From Thermoanaerobaculia bacterium (GTDB lineage: Bacteria > Acidobacteriota > Thermoanaerobaculia > UBA5066): DNA of 64,000 bases. The stretch spans positions 288,001 to 352,000 of the forward strand of contig CAWFJJ010000024.1 in NCBI GenBank assembly GCA_963816185.1, read 5' to 3'. The position numbers and the translations under genes are program-made. Numbering within the stretch: the first letter of the stretch is position 1; each line of letters starts with the position of its first letter. Positions 42,916-53,009 of this stretch are shown one piece after another. Below the pieces are notes generated by a model. It was not told where the DNA came from. It did no database searches and worked only from the letters and a program-made list of their open reading frames with translations.

Positions 42916-44657
42916 GCGCGACTCTCGCCAAGCCCCCCGTCCCGTCCTCCATTTCGTTCGGCCCGGTCCTCGAGCAGAACCTCGGCGGCCGCGTGACCGT
43001 CGAGCCGCGTCCGGCGTTCGACATCCCGACGCTCGTCACGGATGCGGCGACGCTGAAGGAGGCCGCTCTTTTCCTCAGGGACGACCCTTCGACGGCGTAC
43101 GACCTCTTCCTCGACCTCGCCTCCGTCGACCGCTCGAAGCTCCCGGGCGATCAGGCTCCCAAAGACGGAACCCGCTTCCAGGCGAACTACATCCTCTACT
43201 CGACGAAGCGGAACGAGCACCTCAGGCTGCGCGTGAACCTGCCCGCGAAGGACCCGGCCGCACCCTCTCTCGTCGGCGTCTGGCCCGCCGCGAACTGGTT
43301 CGAGCGCGAGGCCTGGGACCTCATGGGGATCCGCTTCGACGGCCACCCGAACCTCCAGCGCCTTCTCACGCACAACGGGTTCGTCGGCCACGCGCTGCGC
43401 AAGGACTACGACAAGAAACAGCGCTGGCTCTGCACCGAGGAGGACCTCCTCCAGACGGAGCTCGCCGCGAAGACGGACGACCCGGCCGACATGTTCGAGA
43501 CGATGACGCTGAACTTCGGGCCGTCCCACCCGGCGACGCACGGCACGCTCCGCGTCGTGATGCGCGTGGACGGCGAGAAGATCGTCGCGGCCGAGTCCGA
43601 GTGCGGATACCTGCACCGCTGCTTCGAGGGAATGTCCGAGACGCATACGTGGGTGCAGGTCGTGCCGTACACCGACCGGCTCAACTACTGCTCGCCCATG
43701 ATCAACGGCAACGGCTACGTGCGCGCCGTCGAGCAGATGCTCGGCGTCGAGGTCCCGCCGCGCGCGAAGGCCGCGCGCACGGTGCTGAACGAGTTCTCGA
43801 GGATCATGGACCATCTCGTCTGCATCGCGGCGAACCTCGTCGACATCGGCGCGCTCACGAACTACTGGTACGCGTACCAGCCGCGCGAGGAGATCTACGG
43901 CCTTCTCGAGGCCTGCTGCGGCGCGCGCCTCACGTCCTCGTACGCGCGCATCGGCGGGCTCGCGAAGGACGTGCCGGAGAACTTCGTCGAGTGGTCGCGG
44001 TCGCTCCTGCCCACGATCCGCGACCGGATGGCCGACGTCGACCGCCTCGTCACGAAGAACAAGATCGTCTGGAACAGGTTGCGCGGCACGGGCGTCGTCT
44101 CGAAGGAGCAGGCTCTCGCCTGGGGCTTCACGGGGCCGTGCCTGAGGGCTTCCGGCGTCGCGTACGACGTCCGCAAGGACAAGCCGTACGAGATGTACGG
44201 CGACGTGGACTTCGACGTCCCGATCTCGACGGACGGCGACAACTTCGCGCGCTACCTCGTGAGGATGGAGGAGATGCGGCAGTCGATGCGGATCATCGAG
44301 CAGCTCGTCGCGCGGTTCCCGAAGGGGCCGATCAACTCGGACGACTACCGCGTCATCCTGCCGCCCAAGGAGATGGTCTACAACGAGATGGAGGCGCTCA
44401 TCTACCACTTCAAGCTCGTCTTCGAGGGCGTGAAGGTGCCGCCGGGGGAGATCTACTCGTACACCGAGGGCGGCAACGGCGAGCTGGGCTTCTCGCTCGT
44501 ATCGGACGGCAGCGGCTTCCCCTACCGGATCAAGGTGAGGCCGCCGTGCTTCCCGCTCTTCGCGGCGTTCGAGAAGATCATCAAGGGCAGCATGGTGTCC
44601 GACGCCGTCGCCACGCTCGGCTTGCTGAACATCATCGCCGGCGAGCTGGACCGGTAG
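42912..44657 (+). CDS. nuoCD: NADH-quinone oxidoreductase fused subunit C/D
   Basis: [19 protein letters not shown] then [27 protein letters not shown]. Confidence 0.93.
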
Positions 44658-44668
44658 GCAGGTAGCAC

Positions 44669-45331
44669 ATGGCCGCACGCGTCGTCACCGTCAACGCTCC
44701 AGCCCCCACGCTCCTCGAGAGTCTCTATCTCCCGGAGATCTTCAAGGGCCTCGCGCGCACGCTCTCTCACCTCGTGAAGAACCTCGCGAACATCAAGGGC
44801 ATGCCGACGATCCAGTACCCCGAGATGCGCCGGAACTACTCCGGGCGCTTCCGCGGGCGCCACATCCTGAAGACGCGCGAGGACGGCACGCTCAAGTGCG
44901 TGGCCTGCTACATGTGCGAGACGGCGTGCCCGGCCGAGTGCATTTACATCGAGGCGGGCGAGCACCCGGTCCTCGCGTACGAGAAGTACCCGACGAAGTT
45001 CGAGATCGACATGCTGCGGTGCGTCTTCTGCGGATACTGCGTGGACGCGTGCCCGAAGGACGCGATCTGGATGACGAAGGACTACGAGCTGTCCTTCTTC
45101 GACCGCAAGAGCGCCGTCCTCGGCATCCCCGAGCTCACGGAAAAACCGTCCGACACTGGCCCGGACGGCCCCGGCTACGGCTACCGGCCGTACGAGGGCG
45201 AGAACCCCATGAAGAAGGCGGGGGAGTTCGAGCCCTCGGGCCTCGCGCTCCTGCCGGCCCTCGCGGAGCGCGGCCTGGCGATCAACCGCATGCCGCCCCC
45301 GCCGCCGCCGCCGCCGGCGAAGGCGGGCTGA
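44669..45331 (+). CDS. nuoI: NADH-quinone oxidoreductase subunit I
   Basis: TIQYPE, RFRGRH, two CxxCxxCxxxCP motifs. Confidence 0.93.
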   Translation: MAARVVTVNAPAPTLLESLYLPEIFKGLARTLSHLVKNLANIKGMPTIQYPEMRRNYSGRFRGRHILKTREDGTLKCVACYMCETACPAECIYIEAGEHPVLAYEKYPTKFEIDMLRCVFCGYCVDACPKDAIWMTKDYELSFFDRKSAVLGIPELTEKPSDTGPDGPGYGYRPYEGENPMKKAGEFEPSGLALLPALAERGLAINRMPPPPPPPPAKAG

Positions 45332-45342
45332 GGGCGCACCAA

Positions 45343-45438
45343 AGTGCCCAGATGTCTCCACCACGCGGTGGGCACATCTGCACATTTGCGGAAGAGTGCC
45401 CAAATGTGTCCGCCGTTGCCGTCTAATACTAGTTAGGC
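45343..45438 (+). other. attI-like integron recombination site (no adjacent integrase)
   Basis: GTCTAAT-ACTA-GTTAGGC simple site at 45421-45438; 12/13 direct repeats at 45343 and 45395; GTTAGGC complements the GCCTAAC that ends cassette 1. Confidence 0.6.
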
Positions 45439-45447
45439 TGCGCAACG

Positions 45448-45975
45448 ATGGCCGAAGCCCTCCTTCTCTCAAAGCTTCAGGTGGCGCGGCGGCAACTCGA
45501 GGCAACCGTCGGACTCTTTTTCCGGGACGGCGACCCCGTTGCAATCCATACCCTCACAGCAGCGGCGTACGAAGTACTACATGACCTCACCAAGATCTCC
45601 GGGCAGCACGCGATGCTCAAGGCCCGGGTCGAAGAGGTAGTCAAGCCCGAGCATGTCAAGGCGTTCCGGCTCAAGCTGAACGAGGCTGAAAACTTTTTCA
45701 AGCATGCGGCTCGTGACCCGGCCGCCCTCCTGCGGTTCTACCCCGGTCAAACCGAAATCCTCCTGTTCGACGCCGTCAGAACGTATCGCCTCATCTCGGG
45801 CAAGCCGGCCCCCCTTCTCACGGCGTTCGAGTACTGGTGCGTTCTTCACGCCCCCGATCTTTTCTTGCCGCTGGCGGGCGCCGCCGCTTTTCAAGGCCTC
45901 TTTCCAAGCCTCCTTTCAATGTCCCGCTCGGAGTTCCTCGAATCTCTCCTTCCAGGTCTCCCTGTGAATGGCTGA
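45448..45975 (+). CDS. Cassette 1: hypothetical HEPN-like protein (last codons displaced by IS481)
   Basis: Starts 9 nt after GTTAGGC; helical, with NFFKH motif; lower GC than flanks. Confidence 0.7.
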   Translation: MAEALLLSKLQVARRQLEATVGLFFRDGDPVAIHTLTAAAYEVLHDLTKISGQHAMLKARVEEVVKPEHVKAFRLKLNEAENFFKHAARDPAALLRFYPGQTEILLFDAVRTYRLISGKPAPLLTAFEYWCVLHAPDLFLPLAGAAAFQGLFPSLLSMSRSEFLESLLPGLPVNG

Positions 45976-47375
45976 ACGGTCGGGCACATAGGTAACACTT
46001 TAGTCCAGGCACATGGGTAACACTTATCAACAGTTACCTCGTCGTCGTCGTGCTGTGGAGATCGTGGAAATCTTCTTGCGTAGAGCTCTCAGCCCCGCGC
46101 CCAGTGCGGCCGCCGCGATGCCAAGGCCGGTGTTCATAGAAGGCTGCATAGAGTTTCTTGTCGCGCTCGTCGAAGCGCCCCAGCAGTAGCGAACCGAAGT
46201 ACAGGTTCCAGATGCCGTCGTCGACCTCCTCGAGCCCGACGTACTCGTCGATCAGGGGGTGGCTGACGCTGAGCCAGCCCGTCTTCCAGCGGATCCCGCC
46301 GTTGCGGCTGACGCGCCTGACCTCGAAGTGGCCCGGGTACTCGATGGGTGCGAGCTTGGACGGGAACGTGCGCAGTGAAGGACGGTAAAGATCGGCGGGC
46401 CGTTTCATGCCGATGCTTTCGTGGGGCCGCTCGGTGTTGAACTCCAGCTGGAAGGCGTCGAAGCGTTTCTGCTGGCCTCTGAGGTCGCGCCCCACGGGGT
46501 GAGTCGTCGCCCGCTTGAGCGTGCGATGCATCCTCTCGTGCGAGCCGTTCTGCTCGGGGTGGGCCGGCTGCGTGAGCTCGGGCCTGATTCCCAGCTTGAT
46601 CCACCACACCGAGAGGCGCGAGAGCCGCCCCAGGCCCGTCGACGCAAACGGAACCCCGTTGTCGCTTCGGATCGCATCGGGCAATCCATGTTCGCGAAAC
46701 AGCCGTTCGAAGCTTTTCTTCACGCCGTCCGCCTTCGTCGAGAGCAGCCCTCTGCACCCGATGAGGTATCGGCTATAGAGGTCGCTCACCGTCAGCGGGT
46801 AGCAGTAGATCCCGTCGCCCGTCAGGAACTCGCCCTTGAAGTCCGTGGCCCACAGCGCATTCGCCTTCTCAGCCACCGTCATCGGACGTCCCGGATGCCC
46901 GACGGGCCGTCTGCGGCGCCGCGCCTTCACGAGCCCGTGTCTCTTGAGAATCGCCGCCACCGTGCTTCGTGCCGGCCAGCTCGTCTCCTGGTCGCGCGTC
47001 GCCAGCACGTGGACGATCTTCTTCGGGCCCCAGTCGGGGTGTTTGCGTCGAAACTCAGTGATGGCCGACTCGACATCCCCAGCGGTCTGATTCGGGTGCC
47101 AGTGCGGCCGGCGCACCTGGTCCTCGAGCCCTGCCACACCTTCCGCCTCGAATCTCTCGATCCACTTGTAGAGCGTCTTGCGGCTCACGCCGTGCCGCTC
47201 GGCCAGAAACCTCACCGTGAAAAGCCCGCTTCGATAATCCACCAGGCTCTGCATCCTCTCGGCCACGGGTGTCGTCTCCTTCCAGGGCATCGGGCGTTTC
47301 TCCTCCCGCCCGAACTCTGCCCTGTGTCACCCATGTGCCTGGACCGTTCTGTAACCCATGTGCCCGGACTGAACC
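45973..47375 (-). mobile_element. IS481-family insertion sequence
   Basis: Two GGCACATRGGTAACA-like repeats at each end in inverted orientation; GGC on both flanks (45970-72, 47376-78). Confidence 0.85.
46034..47290 (-). CDS. IS481-family DDE transposase
   Basis: MPWKE start, HTH, WATDFKG, RSDNGVPF, QNGSHERMHRTLK, RPHE. Confidence 0.93.
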   Translation of the reverse strand: MPWKETTPVAERMQSLVDYRSGLFTVRFLAERHGVSRKTLYKWIERFEAEGVAGLEDQVRRPHWHPNQTAGDVESAITEFRRKHPDWGPKKIVHVLATRDQETSWPARSTVAAILKRHGLVKARRRRRPVGHPGRPMTVAEKANALWATDFKGEFLTGDGIYCYPLTVSDLYSRYLIGCRGLLSTKADGVKKSFERLFREHGLPDAIRSDNGVPFASTGLGRLSRLSVWWIKLGIRPELTQPAHPEQNGSHERMHRTLKRATTHPVGRDLRGQQKRFDAFQLEFNTERPHESIGMKRPADLYRPSLRTFPSKLAPIEYPGHFEVRRVSRNGGIRWKTGWLSVSHPLIDEYVGLEEVDDGIWNLYFGSLLLGRFDERDKKLYAAFYEHRPWHRGGRTGRGAESSTQEDFHDLHSTTTTR

Positions 47376-47412
47376 GGCAGCGCAGCCTAACAACGCGCTG
47401 CAGCGGACTTCC

Positions 47413-47707
47413 ATGAGAAGGCCGGTTGTTGTCAAGAGAGGGCGGAATCGCCGGTGGGAATCCCTGGGCTCGAGTGTGTCGCCGCGCTTCCATTCGCACT
47501 CGTATGGGCCGCGTCTTGTCGGCCTGGTGCATGAGGGGGTCTAGTCCGCAAGGGCGCTGCAATCTCGCTACCGGTGTTCCGCCCCGGGCCGAAGTCCGTG
47601 GGGACCGGAGTCCGCTGCGCAGTCGCCCTGACGGGGCGTTGACTCGAATTTGGGATAGCCACGATTGAACGCGTCCTCTCGCTGGTTCCTTTCTTTTTTG
47701 CCCTGTG
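47413..47707 (-). ncRNA. Predicted bridge/seekRNA of element A (ends approximate)
   Basis: Internal loop between stems 47552-60/47619-28 and 47571-75/47604-08 carries target-matching 10-mers. Confidence 0.8.
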
Positions 47708-48874
47708 TCAGGCCGCTGCGGCCGTGCCGTGAGGCGCAGGGGCCTTGCGTAGCGGCTCGTAGACCTCCGCGGTCCGCCACAGCCGATGCAGCAACACCGC
47801 GAGTTTTCGTGCGATGGCAATGACCGCCCGTTTCTTCGCATTGCGCTCTCCTCGGGCTGACAGCGCCAGGCCGGATCGTCTGAGGTCGCAGTCCGGCCCG
47901 AATGGCCCGAGGACGTACTGCGCCGACTGAACCAGAAGCCGGCGCAGGAAGTGGTCCCCCTCTTTCGTGATGCGCAGCTGCGGGTCCGAATCACCGCTCT
48001 GACTTCGCGAAGGTACGAGCCCAAGGTACGCCCCGACGGCCCGGCTCTTCCGGAATCGACCCGGATCCTCCAGCGTCAGGACGTAGGCCAGCGCCACGAT
48101 CGGGCCCACTCCTCCCACCTGCCTCAGCAACGCCGTCTCCGGGTACTTCTTCTTCCCCAGTTCTAAGATGCGCTTGTCGAGCGCCAGGATCTGTCTGGAC
48201 ACGACTTCGATCGTCGTCAGGACGTTCGACAACGCTTCGCGTACCTCCTCGGGAATCTCGCCCACCGCCTGGATGGAGAACGTCCGGGTCGAGCACTTCC
48301 TCAGGCGGTGTCCCGTCGCTTTGACCGCCCCGCGGACGTGGTTGACGAGCTGCGTCCGCGTCCTCACCAGCACATCGCGCGAGCGCAGGACGGCCATGTC
48401 CTGTGCGACGCTCTCGGGACGGTGCTCCACGGGGTACAGAAGCTTCGGGTCCAGCCGGGCGATCCGGGCCAGGGCCTCGGCATCCACACGGTCCTGCTTC
48501 CCACGGTTCTGGTAGATCAGCCGGGTCTTTCGGGGGTTGGCCACCAGCACCTCGTGCCCTAGCTCTTTCAGAAGGCGGCTCACCCACGGGGAATGCGTTC
48601 CCACCTCCAGCGCGATTCGCATTCCCACCGGCCCTTCGAAACGCTTCCGGATCCCTTCCAGAGTCGTCTGGGCCCTTCCACGCTCGACGACCATCCCATC
48701 TTCATCGAGCACGCAAAAATGGCTCGTCCGATCCCCCAGGTCTATTCCGACGGTCCACGTCGGACAAAAAGCCGGAAGGACGTTCACCACTTTGCCCGAC
48801 GTCAATCTCGCCGTCCCATCACTCCTCGTCGCCGTCCTCTCGCTCCCGCTCGTCCCGGTGCTACGCTTCCTCAC
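47708..48874 (-). CDS. IS110-family DEDD recombinase A
   Basis: VGIDLG, ALEVG, KQDRVDA, GVGPIVA, YLGLVP..SQSG, ARKLA. Confidence 0.93.
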   Translation of the reverse strand: MRKRSTGTSGSERTATRSDGTARLTSGKVVNVLPAFCPTWTVGIDLGDRTSHFCVLDEDGMVVERGRAQTTLEGIRKRFEGPVGMRIALEVGTHSPWVSRLLKELGHEVLVANPRKTRLIYQNRGKQDRVDAEALARIARLDPKLLYPVEHRPESVAQDMAVLRSRDVLVRTRTQLVNHVRGAVKATGHRLRKCSTRTFSIQAVGEIPEEVREALSNVLTTIEVVSRQILALDKRILELGKKKYPETALLRQVGGVGPIVALAYVLTLEDPGRFRKSRAVGAYLGLVPSRSQSGDSDPQLRITKEGDHFLRRLLVQSAQYVLGPFGPDCDLRRSGLALSARGERNAKKRAVIAIARKLAVLLHRLWRTAEVYEPLRKAPAPHGTAAAA

Positions 48875-48990
48875 GGCCGGTCTCCCTTCTGGGCCTCGAG
48901 CCCGCAATGTCCTTGCAGCGAATTTTCCGACTGCGCCGGGGAGACCGGCCTTCTCATCCCATCTCGCTACGCTCGCCGCTGAGCTTGCCC

Positions 48991-49204
48991 ATGAAGATTC
49001 CTGTCAAGCCCCTCGCTGAATAATTTCTTGCTTGCGCCGCACGAAACAGCCGGCCACTCGTCCATTCGGGGTCAGAGCCCCACGTATCACTTCAGCGGAT
49101 GGCGCCCCAAACGATATCCCGGGCTCTGCGGCCCAATGCTCAGCAGCAGGGTCATCCACCCGATTCTCGGCAAGATTTGCGGCGTGCTTTTCCTTTCTTC
49201 GTCT
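48991..49204 (-). ncRNA. Predicted bridge/seekRNA of element B (ends approximate)
   Basis: Target loop 49097-49157 and donor-like loop 49057-49089, with matches to the flanks and the circle junction. Confidence 0.72.
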
Positions 49205-50308
49205 TCAGCGGCTCTTTGCCGCTTGAGGTTTCAGTCGATAGATCCGGGCATCCTTTACCGCCGTGCGCGGCTCGTGGGCTTTCAGCATCGATCGATCAAA
49301 GCTCGTCTTGTCTCGAAGCATCGCGTAAAGAACCCGACAGAGACGATGCGCCACGGCGGTGACAGCGCGGCGTGTCCCCAGGCGCAACGTGAGAGTTCTC
49401 AGAAACGGATTCAGTGGGCTGCTTTGCCGCCTGGCCGTGTGAGCCGCCTGCACGAGCATGGCCCGCAGCTCGGGCGAACCCGTCCTGGTGATGTGGCCCT
49501 GGCGGTTCGTTTCGCCCGACTGGTAGGTTTGCGGGACGAGCCCCGCGTAGCTCGCCGCATGCTTGGCGGTCGGAAAGCGCGTGGCGTCTGAGAAGACAGC
49601 GATTGCCGTCAGCGCCACGATCTCCCCGACTCCTGGAACGGTTTTGAGTCTCTCGAGGTCTTCGCCGAAGGCGGCGTGCTGGCTTTCGAGGCTCTTCTCG
49701 CACGCGTTCTTCTGCTCGAGGGCAGTCTGCCAGGCGCGGTGGTGAAGCTCGACGTAGCTCCTTACCTGCGGATGTGGAACCAGGGCCCCAAGAAGGCGCT
49801 GCCACGCGCGAAGGGTCCCGAGATGCTGGCGGCTGAGCTCGGAGAGCCCCGCGCTCCGGAGCATCTTTTTCGCCGCGTTGATCTGCGCCGTCCCGAGACG
49901 CACGAAATGGCGGCGCCTCGAGAGGGTATTTCTAAGGTGCTCGATCTTCTCCGGCGGCACATGCACGATCGACCGGTAGATTCCACGCCGCAGGCCTTCG
50001 CACAGTTCAACGGCGTCTCTCGTGTCGCTTTTCTGCCGGGGCCGATGGGCTTTGATCCTGACCTCTCGCGCATCCACCACGACGGGTGAAAGCCCCAGCT
50101 CACTGAGCTTTCGCGCCGCAAAAAACGCCATCGTCCCCGATTCGAGAGCCACCAGCGTCGAGGCGCGAAGCTTGAAACGTAGCCGCAACGAGGAAAACCC
50201 TTCCACAGAGGTCGGCACCTCGCCTCGTCCCAGCTCCTCTCCCCGCTCGTTCTGAATCATGAAAACGCTCGACTTGCTGTGAACGTCCAGTCCCACATAA
50301 GATTTCAT
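49205..50308 (-). CDS. IS110-family DEDD recombinase B
   Basis: YVGLDVH, ALESG, KSDTRDA, VPGVG, YAGLVP..YQSG; GGGAGG RBS. Confidence 0.93.
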   Translation of the reverse strand: MKSYVGLDVHSKSSVFMIQNERGEELGRGEVPTSVEGFSSLRLRFKLRASTLVALESGTMAFFAARKLSELGLSPVVVDAREVRIKAHRPRQKSDTRDAVELCEGLRRGIYRSIVHVPPEKIEHLRNTLSRRRHFVRLGTAQINAAKKMLRSAGLSELSRQHLGTLRAWQRLLGALVPHPQVRSYVELHHRAWQTALEQKNACEKSLESQHAAFGEDLERLKTVPGVGEIVALTAIAVFSDATRFPTAKHAASYAGLVPQTYQSGETNRQGHITRTGSPELRAMLVQAAHTARRQSSPLNPFLRTLTLRLGTRRAVTAVAHRLCRVLYAMLRDKTSFDRSMLKAHEPRTAVKDARIYRLKPQAAKSR

Positions 50309-50470
50309 CGGGCTGTCCTCCCTTGCTTGGGGCACCTCCTCGGAGGTTGACCCCGTTAAACTTGTGGCCCGATTCTTCGGTGACCACGTCGGCGAGGACA
50401 GCCCTTTTCTCGTCTTCATTGAAACGATATCGTTAGACGCCGGAAGGTAAAGCAGAGCTAGAATCTCCTC

Positions 50471-50692
50471 ATGTCGCTCGAACTGACCGCCGTCTTTCAG
50501 CAGGTGCCTGAAGGCTTCATCGCCTTTATCGAGGAGCTTCCGGGTGCGAACTCGCAGGGAGCCACGCTCGAGGAGGCCCGTTCAAACCTGCACGAGGCGG
50601 TAACGCTGGTTCTCGAGGCTAATCGCGCCCTCAGCGAGCAGGCGCTCGCGAACGCCTCGGTCATTAGGGAGCGTTTCAAGATCTCGGCGTGA
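50471..50692 (+). CDS. hicB: Cassette 2: HicB-family antitoxin (short, no DNA-binding domain)
   Basis: ELPGANSQGATLEEARSNLHEA. Confidence 0.88.
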   Translation: MSLELTAVFQQVPEGFIAFIEELPGANSQGATLEEARSNLHEAVTLVLEANRALSEQALANASVIRERFKISA

Positions 50693-50880
50693 AGCGCGCC
50701 GAGCTCATTCGTCACCTCGAACGCCATGGCTGCCAGCTCCTTCGCGAAGGCGGCTCGCATACCGTGTACGTCAATCGGCCCGAGCGCAAGGTATCTACCA
50801 TTCCCCGGCATCGCGAGCTCAACGAATTCCTTGCCGTCAAGATCTGCAAGGACCTCGGCGTCCCGAAGCCCGGCGTCTAA
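50689..50880 (+). CDS. hicA: Cassette 2: HicA-family mRNA interferase
   Basis: LLREGGSH..IPRH..ICKDLG; stop codon lies within GTCTAAC of attC2. Confidence 0.9.
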   Translation: MKRAELIRHLERHGCQLLREGGSHTVYVNRPERKVSTIPRHRELNEFLAVKICKDLGVPKPGV

Positions 50881-50918
50881 CAACGCGCTGCAGCGGACTC
50901 GTCGTCAGTCGCTGCGCT
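50875..50918 (+). other. attC2, left arm only (truncated)
   Basis: GTCTAACAACGCGCTGCAGCGGACTCG is nearly identical to the attC1 left arm; no GCTGAGC..GTTRRRY follows. Confidence 0.75.
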
Positions 50919-50975
50919 TAACTCGCTGCAATCTCTCTCCCAGGATCGCTCAAACCCAGATGGAGGTCGAAGACC

Positions 50976-53009
50976 ATGAGCCGGACCCATCGAGCGTTGA
51001 ACAATTGGATTGTGTTGGCTACGGTAATGGTGGTGGCAAGATACAGCAATACGTCGCAGGCTGCACCGCCAGTGGTGCCGGAGAGGGCATTACGCATCCA
51101 TGGCCCGTTCACAGTGGGCGCTGCGGACCTGAATCCGGCGAACGGTGGCGCTCCGACCAGCCCCAATGCCCCGAGGCCGTCGGGCGGCGGCACGCATCAC
51201 CATCCCGACGACGGGACCGGAGAGCCTCCCGGTCCTCAGACCCCTCCGGCGACGTCCGCGTTCGTCGATGTCGCGGGGTTGGGGGGCATCGACCCCGGGA
51301 TTGCGGCGGGTGACCGCTACGTCCTCGTCTGCGACAACGCGACCGGGCTGGCCTTCTACGACAAGACCGGGAAGCTGCTGGGTCCGAAGTCTCCCGGCTC
51401 CCCGTTTGCAAATCCCTTCTCGGTGTTCTCGCTGTTCTCTCAAGTAAAGGCGGACATCGACCCGCAGTTGAACTATCCCCCGGGTCTCCCACCCGGCTTC
51501 AACGTCGCCCACGGCAATGGCATCAGCGCCTATGGCGACGTCCGGGTGATGTTCGATCCATATCGCAAGCGGTTCTGGATCTACGCCATGGCGAAGAACG
51601 AGATCCCCACCGACTCGCCAAGTGTCATCAAGTTCCCGGCCATCAAGATGGCTCGGCGGGACAAGGCGGCCGTCGCGGTCTCGCTCACGGAGGACCCCCG
51701 GGACGGCTTCCTCACCTACTGGTGGAACAATACGGTTCACAACGGCGAGTCCAACGTGCCAGCGGGCGGCCCCGATCCGGTGTTCAAGACCTCGGGCGAG
51801 GGCGCCGACTATCCGAGCCTCGGGATCTCGCCCAAGTATTTCCTGGCGACGATCGGGGTGAACCGGAGGGATCCCACCTTCCAGACCAAAACGGACAAGC
51901 AGGTTAAAGCCTGGCTAGCCTGCCAGACCACATTCGTGGCGGACGGCCAGACCTTCGACTATTGCGGCCCGTTCTACATCCACATGATGGTAGTCGACGC
52001 CGAAGCCCTGGTCGGCGCATGCAAGGGCGGCAAGCCGGGCAAGCCATGCGCAGACGGGCGGTCGTTCGGGCTGTTCGTGAACGCCCGGAATTTCGTGACG
52101 GATCGGACCGACAGCGGGGACTTCTACACGAACATGGCGAGGGGCGTGAAGCCCGTCGTCATGCACGGTCTGCCGCCGACCGACCACGCAACAGACGCCT
52201 ATTTCGCGAACAACTTCATTGAGAGGGGCGGCGACCCGGCAACGAAGGCCAAGCTCGCGGACCTCAAGGCGAAGGTCAAGGATCTCCAGCGCCAGATTGC
52301 CGATGCCCCGCCCGCCCGGGCGGCCGACCTCTCGGCAAAGATCCTGGAGAAGGACGTCGAGATCCTCAAGCTGGAGAAGGAGCTCGGGCCGAAGTACTAC
52401 GTGGTCCTGTGGTCCCTCGAGGGAAACAGCCTGACCCCGGCCGCGTATCCGATCCGGCCTTTTGCGATCGACGGGTACAACGACTGGAAATTCGTCCTGA
52501 ACGCCTGCTTCAGGAAAGGGAACCTGTATGCCGCGTTCCAGGACTGCTTCCATGATCCCGATGGGAATTGTCTGCAGGCGATCCGAGCCATCCGCGTCAA
52601 CACCCTGAGCGGCAAGACGGAGGTCGACCGCACCTTCGGGCTGAACAATCCGATCGATGACAAGCCCACCGACCGCTTCTCCTACGAATTCCCTGCGATC
52701 GAGGCGAACAAGCACGGGGATATGGTGCTCGTCTACGCCCGCTCGTCCGCGACCCTCAAGAGGTCCCAGGAGGTACGTTTCAGCGTGTGGTACCACAATG
52801 AGTCGGATATCCGCCCCAGCCGGCTTCTCCATGCCGGCGAGGCGCCCTATTCGGCAACCGAATTCGGGAGAGGTACCGATACGGCAGGGATCAGCGTCGA
52901 CCCATCCGATGACGAGTCGATCTGGATTGCGCAGATCTTCGCGGCCAAGGAGGGGTCGGGGAATGGAACGAATCGGATCGCGTTCGGCAAGGTCTTCGGG
53001 ATGCCGTAA
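50976..53009 (+). CDS. Secreted hypothetical protein (probable beta-propeller) with coiled-coil insert
   Basis: GGAGG RBS; 677-aa ORF with coding-like GC3; DPGIAAG, FDPYRKRFW, DYPSLG. Confidence 0.75.
   Translation: MSRTHRALNNWIVLATVMVVARYSNTSQAAPPVVPERALRIHGPFTVGAADLNPANGGAPTSPNAPRPSGGGTHHHPDDGTGEPPGPQTPPATSAFVDVAGLGGIDPGIAAGDRYVLVCDNATGLAFYDKTGKLLGPKSPGSPFANPFSVFSLFSQVKADIDPQLNYPPGLPPGFNVAHGNGISAYGDVRVMFDPYRKRFWIYAMAKNEIPTDSPSVIKFPAIKMARRDKAAVAVSLTEDPRDGFLTYWWNNTVHNGESNVPAGGPDPVFKTSGEGADYPSLGISPKYFLATIGVNRRDPTFQTKTDKQVKAWLACQTTFVADGQTFDYCGPFYIHMMVVDAEALVGACKGGKPGKPCADGRSFGLFVNARNFVTDRTDSGDFYTNMARGVKPVVMHGLPPTDHATDAYFANNFIERGGDPATKAKLADLKAKVKDLQRQIADAPPARAADLSAKILEKDVEILKLEKELGPKYYVVLWSLEGNSLTPAAYPIRPFAIDGYNDWKFVLNACFRKGNLYAAFQDCFHDPDGNCLQAIRAIRVNTLSGKTEVDRTFGLNNPIDDKPTDRFSYEFPAIEANKHGDMVLVYARSSATLKRSQEVRFSVWYHNESDIRPSRLLHAGEAPYSATEFGRGTDTAGISVDPSDDESIWIAQIFAAKEGSGNGTNRIAFGKVFGMP

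Follow-up and report, generated by a model that had tools for sequence, protein, structure and literature searches.

The locus examined here raises the question of whether an insertion sequence lodged in an attC-like repeat of an Acidobacteriota genome carries an RNA that guides its own insertion, and, if so, which DNA such an RNA reads. Within the window, i.e. the whole stretch of 64,000 nucleotides that was analysed, an IS110-family element of the IS1111 type (element B) occupies positions 48988-50426 (1439 bp), with its transposase gene on the minus strand. The evidence presented below makes it very probable that element B is an IS1111-type IS110-family element with an attC-targeting two-loop guide RNA. 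RNA-guided insertion sequences of this kind are known already, and element B joins them as a new and distant member.

The bounds of the element were derived from empty attC-like sites of the same genome and from six full copies. The empty repeats read GCTGAGCTTG directly followed by ATATCGTTAG, and occupied sites have an insert between these halves; the inserted DNA is therefore 48988-50426, with an ambiguity of one base because a G precedes both junctions. Comparison of occupied and empty sites identifies the left target half, GCTGAGCTTG (48978-48987, plus strand), as the L' arm of the attC-like repeat, and the right target half as ATATC, followed by the R' core GTTAGAC (50427-50438, plus strand). 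The genome contains six full copies with 99.4-100% identity and, in addition, three remnants. The inner flanks are the same in all six copies (...GCCGCTGAGCTTG to the left in the window and ATATC(G/C)TTAG(G/A)C to the right), while the outer flanks differ, and the copies therefore represent separate insertions. Their guides are identical.

The host repeats have the layout GCCTAAC...GCTGCAGCGG...CCGCTGAGC...GTTAGGC at many sites of the genome. Like integron attC sites, they possess inverse cores (R'' RYYYAAC and R' GTTRRRY) and paired L''/L' arms, and form arrays between small cassettes. The best match to the integron integrase model TIGR02249 in the element's own assembly, which is 94.9% complete, scored 74 bits against a cut-off of 265; since no integron integrase exceeds the cut-off, the repeats are named 'attC-like'. 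Together with copies of element B and of a second insertion sequence, element A, they cluster in several arrays, on contigs C24 (732-741 kb), C25 (605-612 kb), C29 (443-453 kb), C2 and C7. The arrays could be attC clusters that lack an integrase; alternatively, the integrase could have remained unassembled.

The transposase (P0001) is encoded at 49205-50308 on the minus strand, consists of 367 aa followed by a stop codon, and its gene is preceded by a Shine-Dalgarno-like sequence, AGGGAGGA. As expected of an IS110-family (DEDD) transposase, the protein contains an N-terminal DEDD_Tnp_IS110 domain (PF01548, DEDD/RuvC-like, 1.1e-13) and a C-terminal Transposase_20 domain (PF02371, 5.2e-24), both above the Pfam cut-offs, and matches the NCBIfam model NF033542, 'IS110 family RNA-guided transposase', with 226 bits against a cut-off of 140. 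The motif GL-P----S(T)G in the C-terminal domain has been described as a mark of the IS1111 group (PMC11187229), and P0001 carries it as GLVPQTYQSG. The transposase of IS5075 aligns with residues 5-338 (24.6% identity, E 1e-8) and the ISEc11 family over residues 45-340, while the similarity to IS621 (E 2.7e-8) and ISCro4 (7e-9) is confined to the C-terminal domain, residues 211-341. P0001 has 367 aa, against the 330-350 aa expected of IS1111 transposases. In a plasmid collection, the highest listed identity was 32.7%, and the best matches among the 5000 best-scoring records remained below 60%; a transposase search of 401 genomes of the phylum, including the element's own, returned four genomes at E <= 1e-60.

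The ends of the element are also of the IS1111 kind. The subterminal inverted repeat ATGAAGA (48991-48997) has its partner TCTTCAT at 50413-50419; these repeats lie 3 and 7 bases from the ends, and their length of 7 bp is at the lower limit of the 7-17 bp given for the IS1111 group (PMC11208160). In the relatives L035 and L036 the repeats measure 11 and 12 bp, respectively. The non-coding region (NCR) between the stop codon (49205-49207) and the element end (48988) comprises 217 nt, compared with 118 nt upstream of the coding sequence, which is the arrangement of the IS1111 group.

A first-pass annotation of this DNA had placed a compact two-loop guide RNA in the 3' NCR, built on the stems GGATG/CATCC (49097-49101/49153-49157), GGGC/GCCC (49121-49124/49131-49134) and GGGG/CCCC (49068-49071/49078-49081). 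All three stems are present, and the proposed structure is supported by the comparison of 12 sequences. The modelled RNA (a bridge RNA or seekRNA; alignment A2, model R1) is 115 nt long, is located at 49052-49166 on the minus strand, and consists of a target-binding loop followed by a donor loop. The target-binding loop (49096-49162) is enclosed by an outer stem (49153-49162/49096-49104) and an inner CCC/GGG stem (49148-49151/49105-49108); helix 1 of this loop comprises 13 pairs, five of them changed on both sides, with 97.4% of the cells paired. Inside it stands the hairpin GGGC-CGCAGA-GCCC (49121-49134), preceded by a near-invariant linker U at 49135. One G-C pair of this hairpin (pair 34/45) is replaced by A-U in 4 of the 12 sequences, and the sole polymorphism of the six copies within the modelled RNA (49129) falls in its loop. 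The hairpin of the second loop, GGGG-CUCUGA-CCCC (49068-49081), has a stem that is invariant in 12/12 sequences and a loop that differs in sequence and length.

When a hand-set structure of 21 pairs was evaluated on the 12-sequence alignment, 96.4% of the cells paired, against 35-51% with the partners slid by 1-3 columns; two-sided (compensatory) changes were found in 6 of the 21 stem pairs, and neither the pairing nor the covariation score was reached in any of 500 shuffles. Three stem positions contain G:U, where the opposite strand would have A:C; the RNA therefore lies on the minus strand, in the sense of the transposase gene. Comparative analysis thus shows the 3' NCR to encode a predicted RNA of about 115 nt with two internal loops. 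The minimum free energy of the whole NCR, calculated for the single sequence, was no better than that of shuffled sequences (z 0.02 for the minus and -0.87 for the plus strand), a search of positions 44000-53000 against Rfam 15 with E up to 1 produced only a chance miRNA match, and a promoter scan inside element B found none upstream of the RNA. A 'terminator-like' site in the element proved to be the loop 1 hairpin followed by the U-rich bases discussed below as handshake-like. Four sequencing runs, all represented by contigs, were examined (X1, X2, X19 and X20, the last two from RNA libraries). Contigs of X19 about 95% alike cover 49035-49250 and nothing beyond it, and such contigs cannot show transcription; no joints were found in the four contig-only runs, which is evidence neither for nor against a circle or an empty site.

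Model R1 found nothing in the element's own genome beyond the six copies and matched 4 of 151 genomes of the class, its own included, all belonging to one genus. Two scans, the first of species genomes and the second of metagenomes, supplied the relatives for comparison. The close relatives have transposases of 83-95% identity and all reside in attC-like repeats; the distant ones are L035 (57% protein identity), L036 (52%) and L041 (31%). Read in the orientation of the transposase, the RNA region is alignable throughout. L059 is truncated by a contig end on its 5' side, and so are L036, L032 and L033 on their 3' side. Left untabulated were L030, L038 and L026 (rearranged in the RNA or the element), L034, L037 and L039 (cut), L058 (5' end of the RNA cut), and L025, L027, L028, L040 and L042-L050 (<=34% identity or fragments); model R1 gave no match on L025, L027, L040 and L042. 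No usable RNA was found, even unfiltered, in L062 (G291, 56% identity) or in L063 (G159, 47% identity, with stops), and in the latter the whole target loop has apparently been lost from 1064-1122, while the hairpin of the donor loop is kept.

The matches between the NCR and the insertion site that the first-pass annotation gave hold. The sequence AAACGATATC at 49109-49118 is identical to the junction at 50422-50431, and these are its only two matches in the 64-kb window (0.01 expected; none of 100 shuffles had two); CAATGCTCAGC at 49134-49144 corresponds in reverse complement to the left flank, GCTGAGCTTG (48978-48987), apart from one extra base. In terms of the RNA, the 5' arm of loop 1, GCUGAGCAU (49136-49144, minus strand), runs in the same sense as the left target on the window strand, GCTGAGCT, extended by the T of TG (8/9); its pairing partner would be the opposite strand. 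The 3' arm, GAUAU-CG (49112-49118, minus strand), would pair with (C/T)G-ATATC of the window strand, i.e. with the junction dinucleotide and the right target. Two guide segments thus occupy one internal loop and match opposite target strands on either side of the insertion point, as in bridge RNAs and seekRNAs.

Covariation of guides and targets was evaluated on 13 site rows, the six own copies being counted once. The 5' arm of loop 1 and the flank match at 112 of 117 positions, compared with a mean of 97.8 in shuffles, of which 1 in 20000 was as good; for distinct guide/target pairs, 59 of 63 positions match, and 24 of 5040 permutations were as good. The rows are kin, and the shuffle counts overstate their independence. 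Five variants of the 5' arm occur among the close relatives and follow the flank, at three positions of the arm. The fit is complete (9/9) in nine rows, where guide and flank both read GAGC-TT (L017 twice, L029), GAAC-TC (L018, L021, L057), GAGC-GC (L020, L023) or GAAC-GC (L019). It is 8/9 in three rows, namely at the six sites of element B (guide GAGC-AT, flank GAGC-TT) and in L022 and L024 (guide GAAC-GC, flank GAAC-TC), and 7/9 in L031 (guide GAGC-TA, flank GAAC-TC). In L020 and L023, flank and 3' arm change in step, the latter from GAUAU-CG to GAUAC-CG; in L033 an arm with GAUAC stands at a GATAT site, a further imperfect fit. Both arms of loop 1 therefore covary with the flanks, as proposed for a loop that reads the target on both strands, and the loop sequences do change at other targets; the outcome that the first-pass annotation had named as refuting, unchanged loops in homologs with other targets, was thus not observed.

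The dinucleotide at the junction differs between the two sides of the element. On the transposase-proximal side, which is the right side on the window strand, CG is present in all ten distinct elements with the left end present. On the distal (left) side, CG is found in 9 of the 18 tabulated site rows (L018-L024, L031, L057), and TG at the six sites of element B, the two of L017 and that of L029, which are all nine sites of this clade. To read the T/C position, the 5' arm has U at the TG sites (own, both of L017, L029), C in eight of the nine CG-site rows and A in L031, and only the G of the 3' arm needs a G:T wobble at TG sites. CG, seen on both sides of nine relatives, is thus the common dinucleotide among the relatives at sequence level, in agreement with the CG-like core proposed earlier, while we infer that TG belongs to the cognate target of the element B lineage, GCTGAGCT-TG-ATATC, located in the spacer that separates L' from R' in an attC-like repeat.

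The earlier proposal went further and took the RNA to be built for GCTGAGCT-CG-ATATC, with the TG sites tolerated as near-cognate through wobble and a bulged base. The CG of the 3' arm with its wobble at TG sites, the half of the site rows with CG on both sides, and the preference of IS621 for matched cores (described in PMC11208160) all speak for such a design; yet every site of the clade is TG, and the 5' arm has U precisely where the CG-site rows have C, which makes it improbable. Own-genome attC-like sites of the CG type without element B point the same way, weakly, as these sites differ elsewhere too. Nor does the extra base behave as a bulge: this U (column 32) is present in 11 of 12 aligned RNAs, the exception being L036, where the automatic alignment is offset, and it lies between guide and hairpin, at the place of the one-base U linker of IS621 (as described in PMC11208158), so that it is most likely a linker. 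The guides had also been called imperfect. This applies to one target-loop mismatch, A opposite A at the junction-adjacent target base, and not to the extra base; the mismatch occurs in all six copies, whose guides are identical, and at least five insertions therefore happened with it.

In the cognate-TG reading, the element would carry C where the target has T, the two bases being read separately by the 5' arms, with U in loop 1 and C in loop 2, and the G of both 3' arms would pair with C and wobble with T. In IS621, the first core base is described as flexible and read by the RNA, and the second as fixed and read by the protein (PMC11208158). An IS621-style account of strand survival at unequal junction bases was tried and failed to reproduce TG on the left and CG on the right.

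The second loop is situated where a donor-binding loop should be. As claimed in the first-pass annotation, CGTATCA at 49083-49089 and CGTCCAT at 49059-49065 each match one half of the junction of the element's own ends in 6 of 7 positions. On the minus strand these are the 5' arm UGAUA-CG, corresponding to the window-right element end TGAAA-CG, and the 3' arm AUGGA-CG, corresponding to the other end, which in transposase orientation reads ATGGG-CG. Of 20000 mononucleotide shuffles applied to the NCR, 454 (2.3%) had both 6/7 matches in the right order and 10-40 nt apart, so that taken alone the match is only weakly significant; relatives with 52-57% protein identity add support. Within the close family, the donor-loop arms and the element ends are invariant. 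Changes appear in distant relatives: in L035, AUGGA becomes AUAGA alongside the end ATGGG becoming ATAGG, i.e. one covarying position with the same junction-adjacent mismatch; in L059, the 3' arm AUAGGA-CG matches the DNA at the predicted 3' end 8/8, the inverted-repeat partner and the 5' end not having been located; and in L041, the 3' arm matches 5/5, with the junction dinucleotide being AG on one side. Donor-loop covariation thus comes from three or four distant, partly incomplete loci. These sequence comparisons in part show that loop 2 may read the joined element ends as loop 1 reads the target.

In element B, L035, L036 and L041 alike, the 5' arm of loop 2 has a mismatch at the second base counted from the junction, and the mismatched base is always the complement of the expected one (U for A in element B; A for U in the other three). 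This mismatch may be built in. One possible role would be to block pairing of the donor arm with the handshake-like bases of loop 1, which match the same DNA on the other strand; another would be to bias the reaction towards insertion over excision.

Each 3' arm is followed by three bases that match the other DNA partner, and by analogy with IS621, where such bases are named handshake guides (PMC11208158, PMC13626964), they may have the same function. In loop 1 these are UUU (49109-49111, minus strand), which can pair with the AAA ending the element (50422-50424) and not with the target; the 10/10 identity of this segment to the junction arises because these three bases match the element end. 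The corresponding bases are UAU in L036 (DNA TAT, 3/3), UGU in L035 (DNA TAT, one G:T wobble), UCU in the L019 group (DNA TTT, 2/3) and AUA in L041 (DNA GAT, 0/3). In loop 2, the bases AGU (49056-49058, minus strand) match the junction-adjacent bases of the target and not those of the donor. Among the relatives, RNAs with AGU agree with targets beginning AG and those with CGU with targets beginning CG, while L022 and L024 disagree (RNA CGU, DNA AG); the agreement is 2/3 in L035 (GCU, DNA GCG) and 1/2 in L059 (CUG, DNA CG), and in L036 (CUU), where the flank is missing, the bases agree only with the element's own 5' arm. For the first of them, 11 of the 13 rows show agreement with the flank, a score reached in 669 of 20000 shuffles.

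These observations bear on whether the second loop is a guide at all. Should loop 1 be the sole guide, the protein would recognise the ends via the subterminal inverted repeats, loop 2 would be a scaffold and its 6/7 matches would be fortuitous. A short seekRNA with the target matches is reported to be sufficient for the movement of ISEc11, and in the account of Siddiquee et al. the recognition of the ends and the role of the long form were left open (PMC11187229); moreover, the loop 2 arms are constant across the close family, with one mismatch in each. We nevertheless consider a sole guide in loop 1 unlikely, as the 3' arm of loop 2 changes with the element end in L035 and fits it 8/8 in L059, the base right after this arm follows the target in most rows, and loop 2 mirrors the layout of loop 1: an arm, a U, a hairpin, a two-base linker, an arm ending in CG, and three bases. 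That the matches have no RNA function and are a relic at the DNA level, such as an attC-like piece captured inside the element, is hardly credible even though the host repeats are themselves palindromic, since the target halves lie in opposite senses, parted by a hairpin with a compensatory change, and covary with the flanks in relatives, where a captured fragment would not track new targets.

The following course can be proposed by analogy. Element B would excise as a circle with the predicted junction ...CATTGAAA-CG-CCCATGAAG... (...TTGAAA-CG-CCCATG...), containing one CG. A -35-like TTGACA is located near the 3' end of the element (49002-49007, minus strand) and TTCAAT at 50418-50423 on the same strand; by counting on the sequence, the two would be 17 bp apart once the ends are joined with one CG, creating a promoter-like arrangement reading into the transposase gene and the downstream RNA. 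TTGACA near the element end is also found in L035 and L036, and the 17-bp count is repeated in L035; L041 does not fit (21 bp). As the handshake-like bases of loop 1 match the element end and those of loop 2 the target, the new pairs would form only after strand exchange. It is conceivable, though on balance doubtful, that two features of this RNA, the unshared junction dinucleotide and the recurrent donor mismatch, represent undescribed rules of IS1111-type bridge RNAs. As to the former, the target may keep its T and the element its C, as seen at all nine sites, each read by its own 5' arm, and the strands may cross at or after the single invariant G; if so, the G of both 3' arms may shift between wobble and Watson-Crick pairing on exchange, acting as a fourth handshake base.

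Among the closest described systems are the attC-targeting ISKpn4 and ISPst6, for which seekRNAs were shown by Siddiquee et al. in 2024 (PMC11187229). Their targets are given as ...TTGAA*CGAATTGTTAG and ...TTGAA*CGCATTGTTAG, i.e. TTGAA*CG(A/C)ATTGTTAG, in Table 1 of a 2026 review (PMC13604230). As described for the seekRNAs of ISKpn4, ISPst6 and ISPa25, the RNA of element B lies in the NCR downstream of the gene for the transposase, within an element with subterminal inverted repeats, and the match to the transposase-sense strand is 5' of the match to the other strand (PMC11187229); the target is likewise just before the attC GTTAG core, with insertion beside CG (PMC13604230). Compared by description, element B differs from these three in that its junction is 5 bases from GTTAG and not 4, its target has TG, its host belongs to the Acidobacteriota and its transposase is very distant.

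Seen from the RNA, the arrangement equals that of IS621, where the 5' arm is directed to the bottom strand and the 3' arm to the top strand (PMC11208158); relative to the transposase gene it is reversed, as in IS1111-type seekRNAs (PMC11187229). As in the published account of IS621, there are two loops, the target loop coming first, with arms for opposite strands around a hairpin (PMC11208160, PMC11208158), a U linker of one base after the 5' arm and handshake bases directly 3' of the 3' arm (PMC11208158), a flexible first and a fixed second junction base, and natural non-canonical donor-guide pairs (PMC11208158, PMC13626964). In contrast to IS621 as it is described there, the RNA of element B is 3' of the gene, with the whole frame inverted relative to the transposase, the junction is (C/T)G and not CT, three handshake bases agree and not two, the inverted repeats are longer, and the proteins resemble each other in the C-terminal domain only. 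For 93.0% of the IS1111 elements of ISfinder, a bridge RNA having a target loop and a donor loop has been predicted in the right end (PMC11208160); Durrant et al. present predicted bridge RNAs of ISCARN28, ISAzs32 and ISPa11 of the IS1111 group (Fig. 6 and Extended Data Fig. 10c of that paper).

Element B is one of three insertion sequences in 4.5 kb. Element A, a second IS1111-type element (47409-48962, transposase 47708-48907, minus strand), shares the attC-like repeat of element B, having its insertion point about 25 bp further left; its subterminal repeats measure 13 bp (ATGAGAAGGCCGG) and its junction dinucleotide is CT. Its 3' NCR contains GCAGCGGACT (~47609-47618), in the sense of its left target plus CT, and GTAGCGAG (~47564-47571), complementary to CT plus its right target, after which comes AU, a match to the end of element A itself. 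In layout this agrees with element B, but the RNA is a different one and was missed by model R1. Directly left of this repeat lies an IS481-family element (46034-47290, minus strand; HTH_32, rve and LZ_Tnp_IS481 domains) with inverted repeats at ~45985-46030 and 47320-47375. On the other side of element B, 50471-50880 encodes a HicB-like antitoxin of 73 aa and a HicA toxin of 63 aa with a 4-base overlap, a cassette between two attC-like repeats. The repeat after hicA (50876-50930) starts like the others (GTCTAACAACGCGCTGCAGCGGACT) and ends without a GTTRRRY core; it could be a last attC-like site that has degenerated or been truncated. Copies of element B in tandem orientation about 0.5 kb apart, in neighbouring attC-like repeats, are found in L017 (1-536 and 1062-2545) and in the element's own genome (C25, 608486-611906); recombination between such copies could delete or mobilise the intervening cassette.

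Element B extends the attC-targeting RNA-guided insertion sequences beyond clinical Proteobacteria to a soil or sediment lineage of Acidobacteriota. Its family provides a natural series of reprogrammed guides, with five guide variants and three target variants in one element family, and such series are the type of evidence used to define programmable positions. For annotation, RNAs of this kind are findable from the element's own flanks. The seekRNA study, as published, left the recognition of IS1111 ends and the long form of the RNA open (PMC11187229), and the present comparison suggests that handshake guides, so far characterised for IS621, occur also in the IS1111 type.
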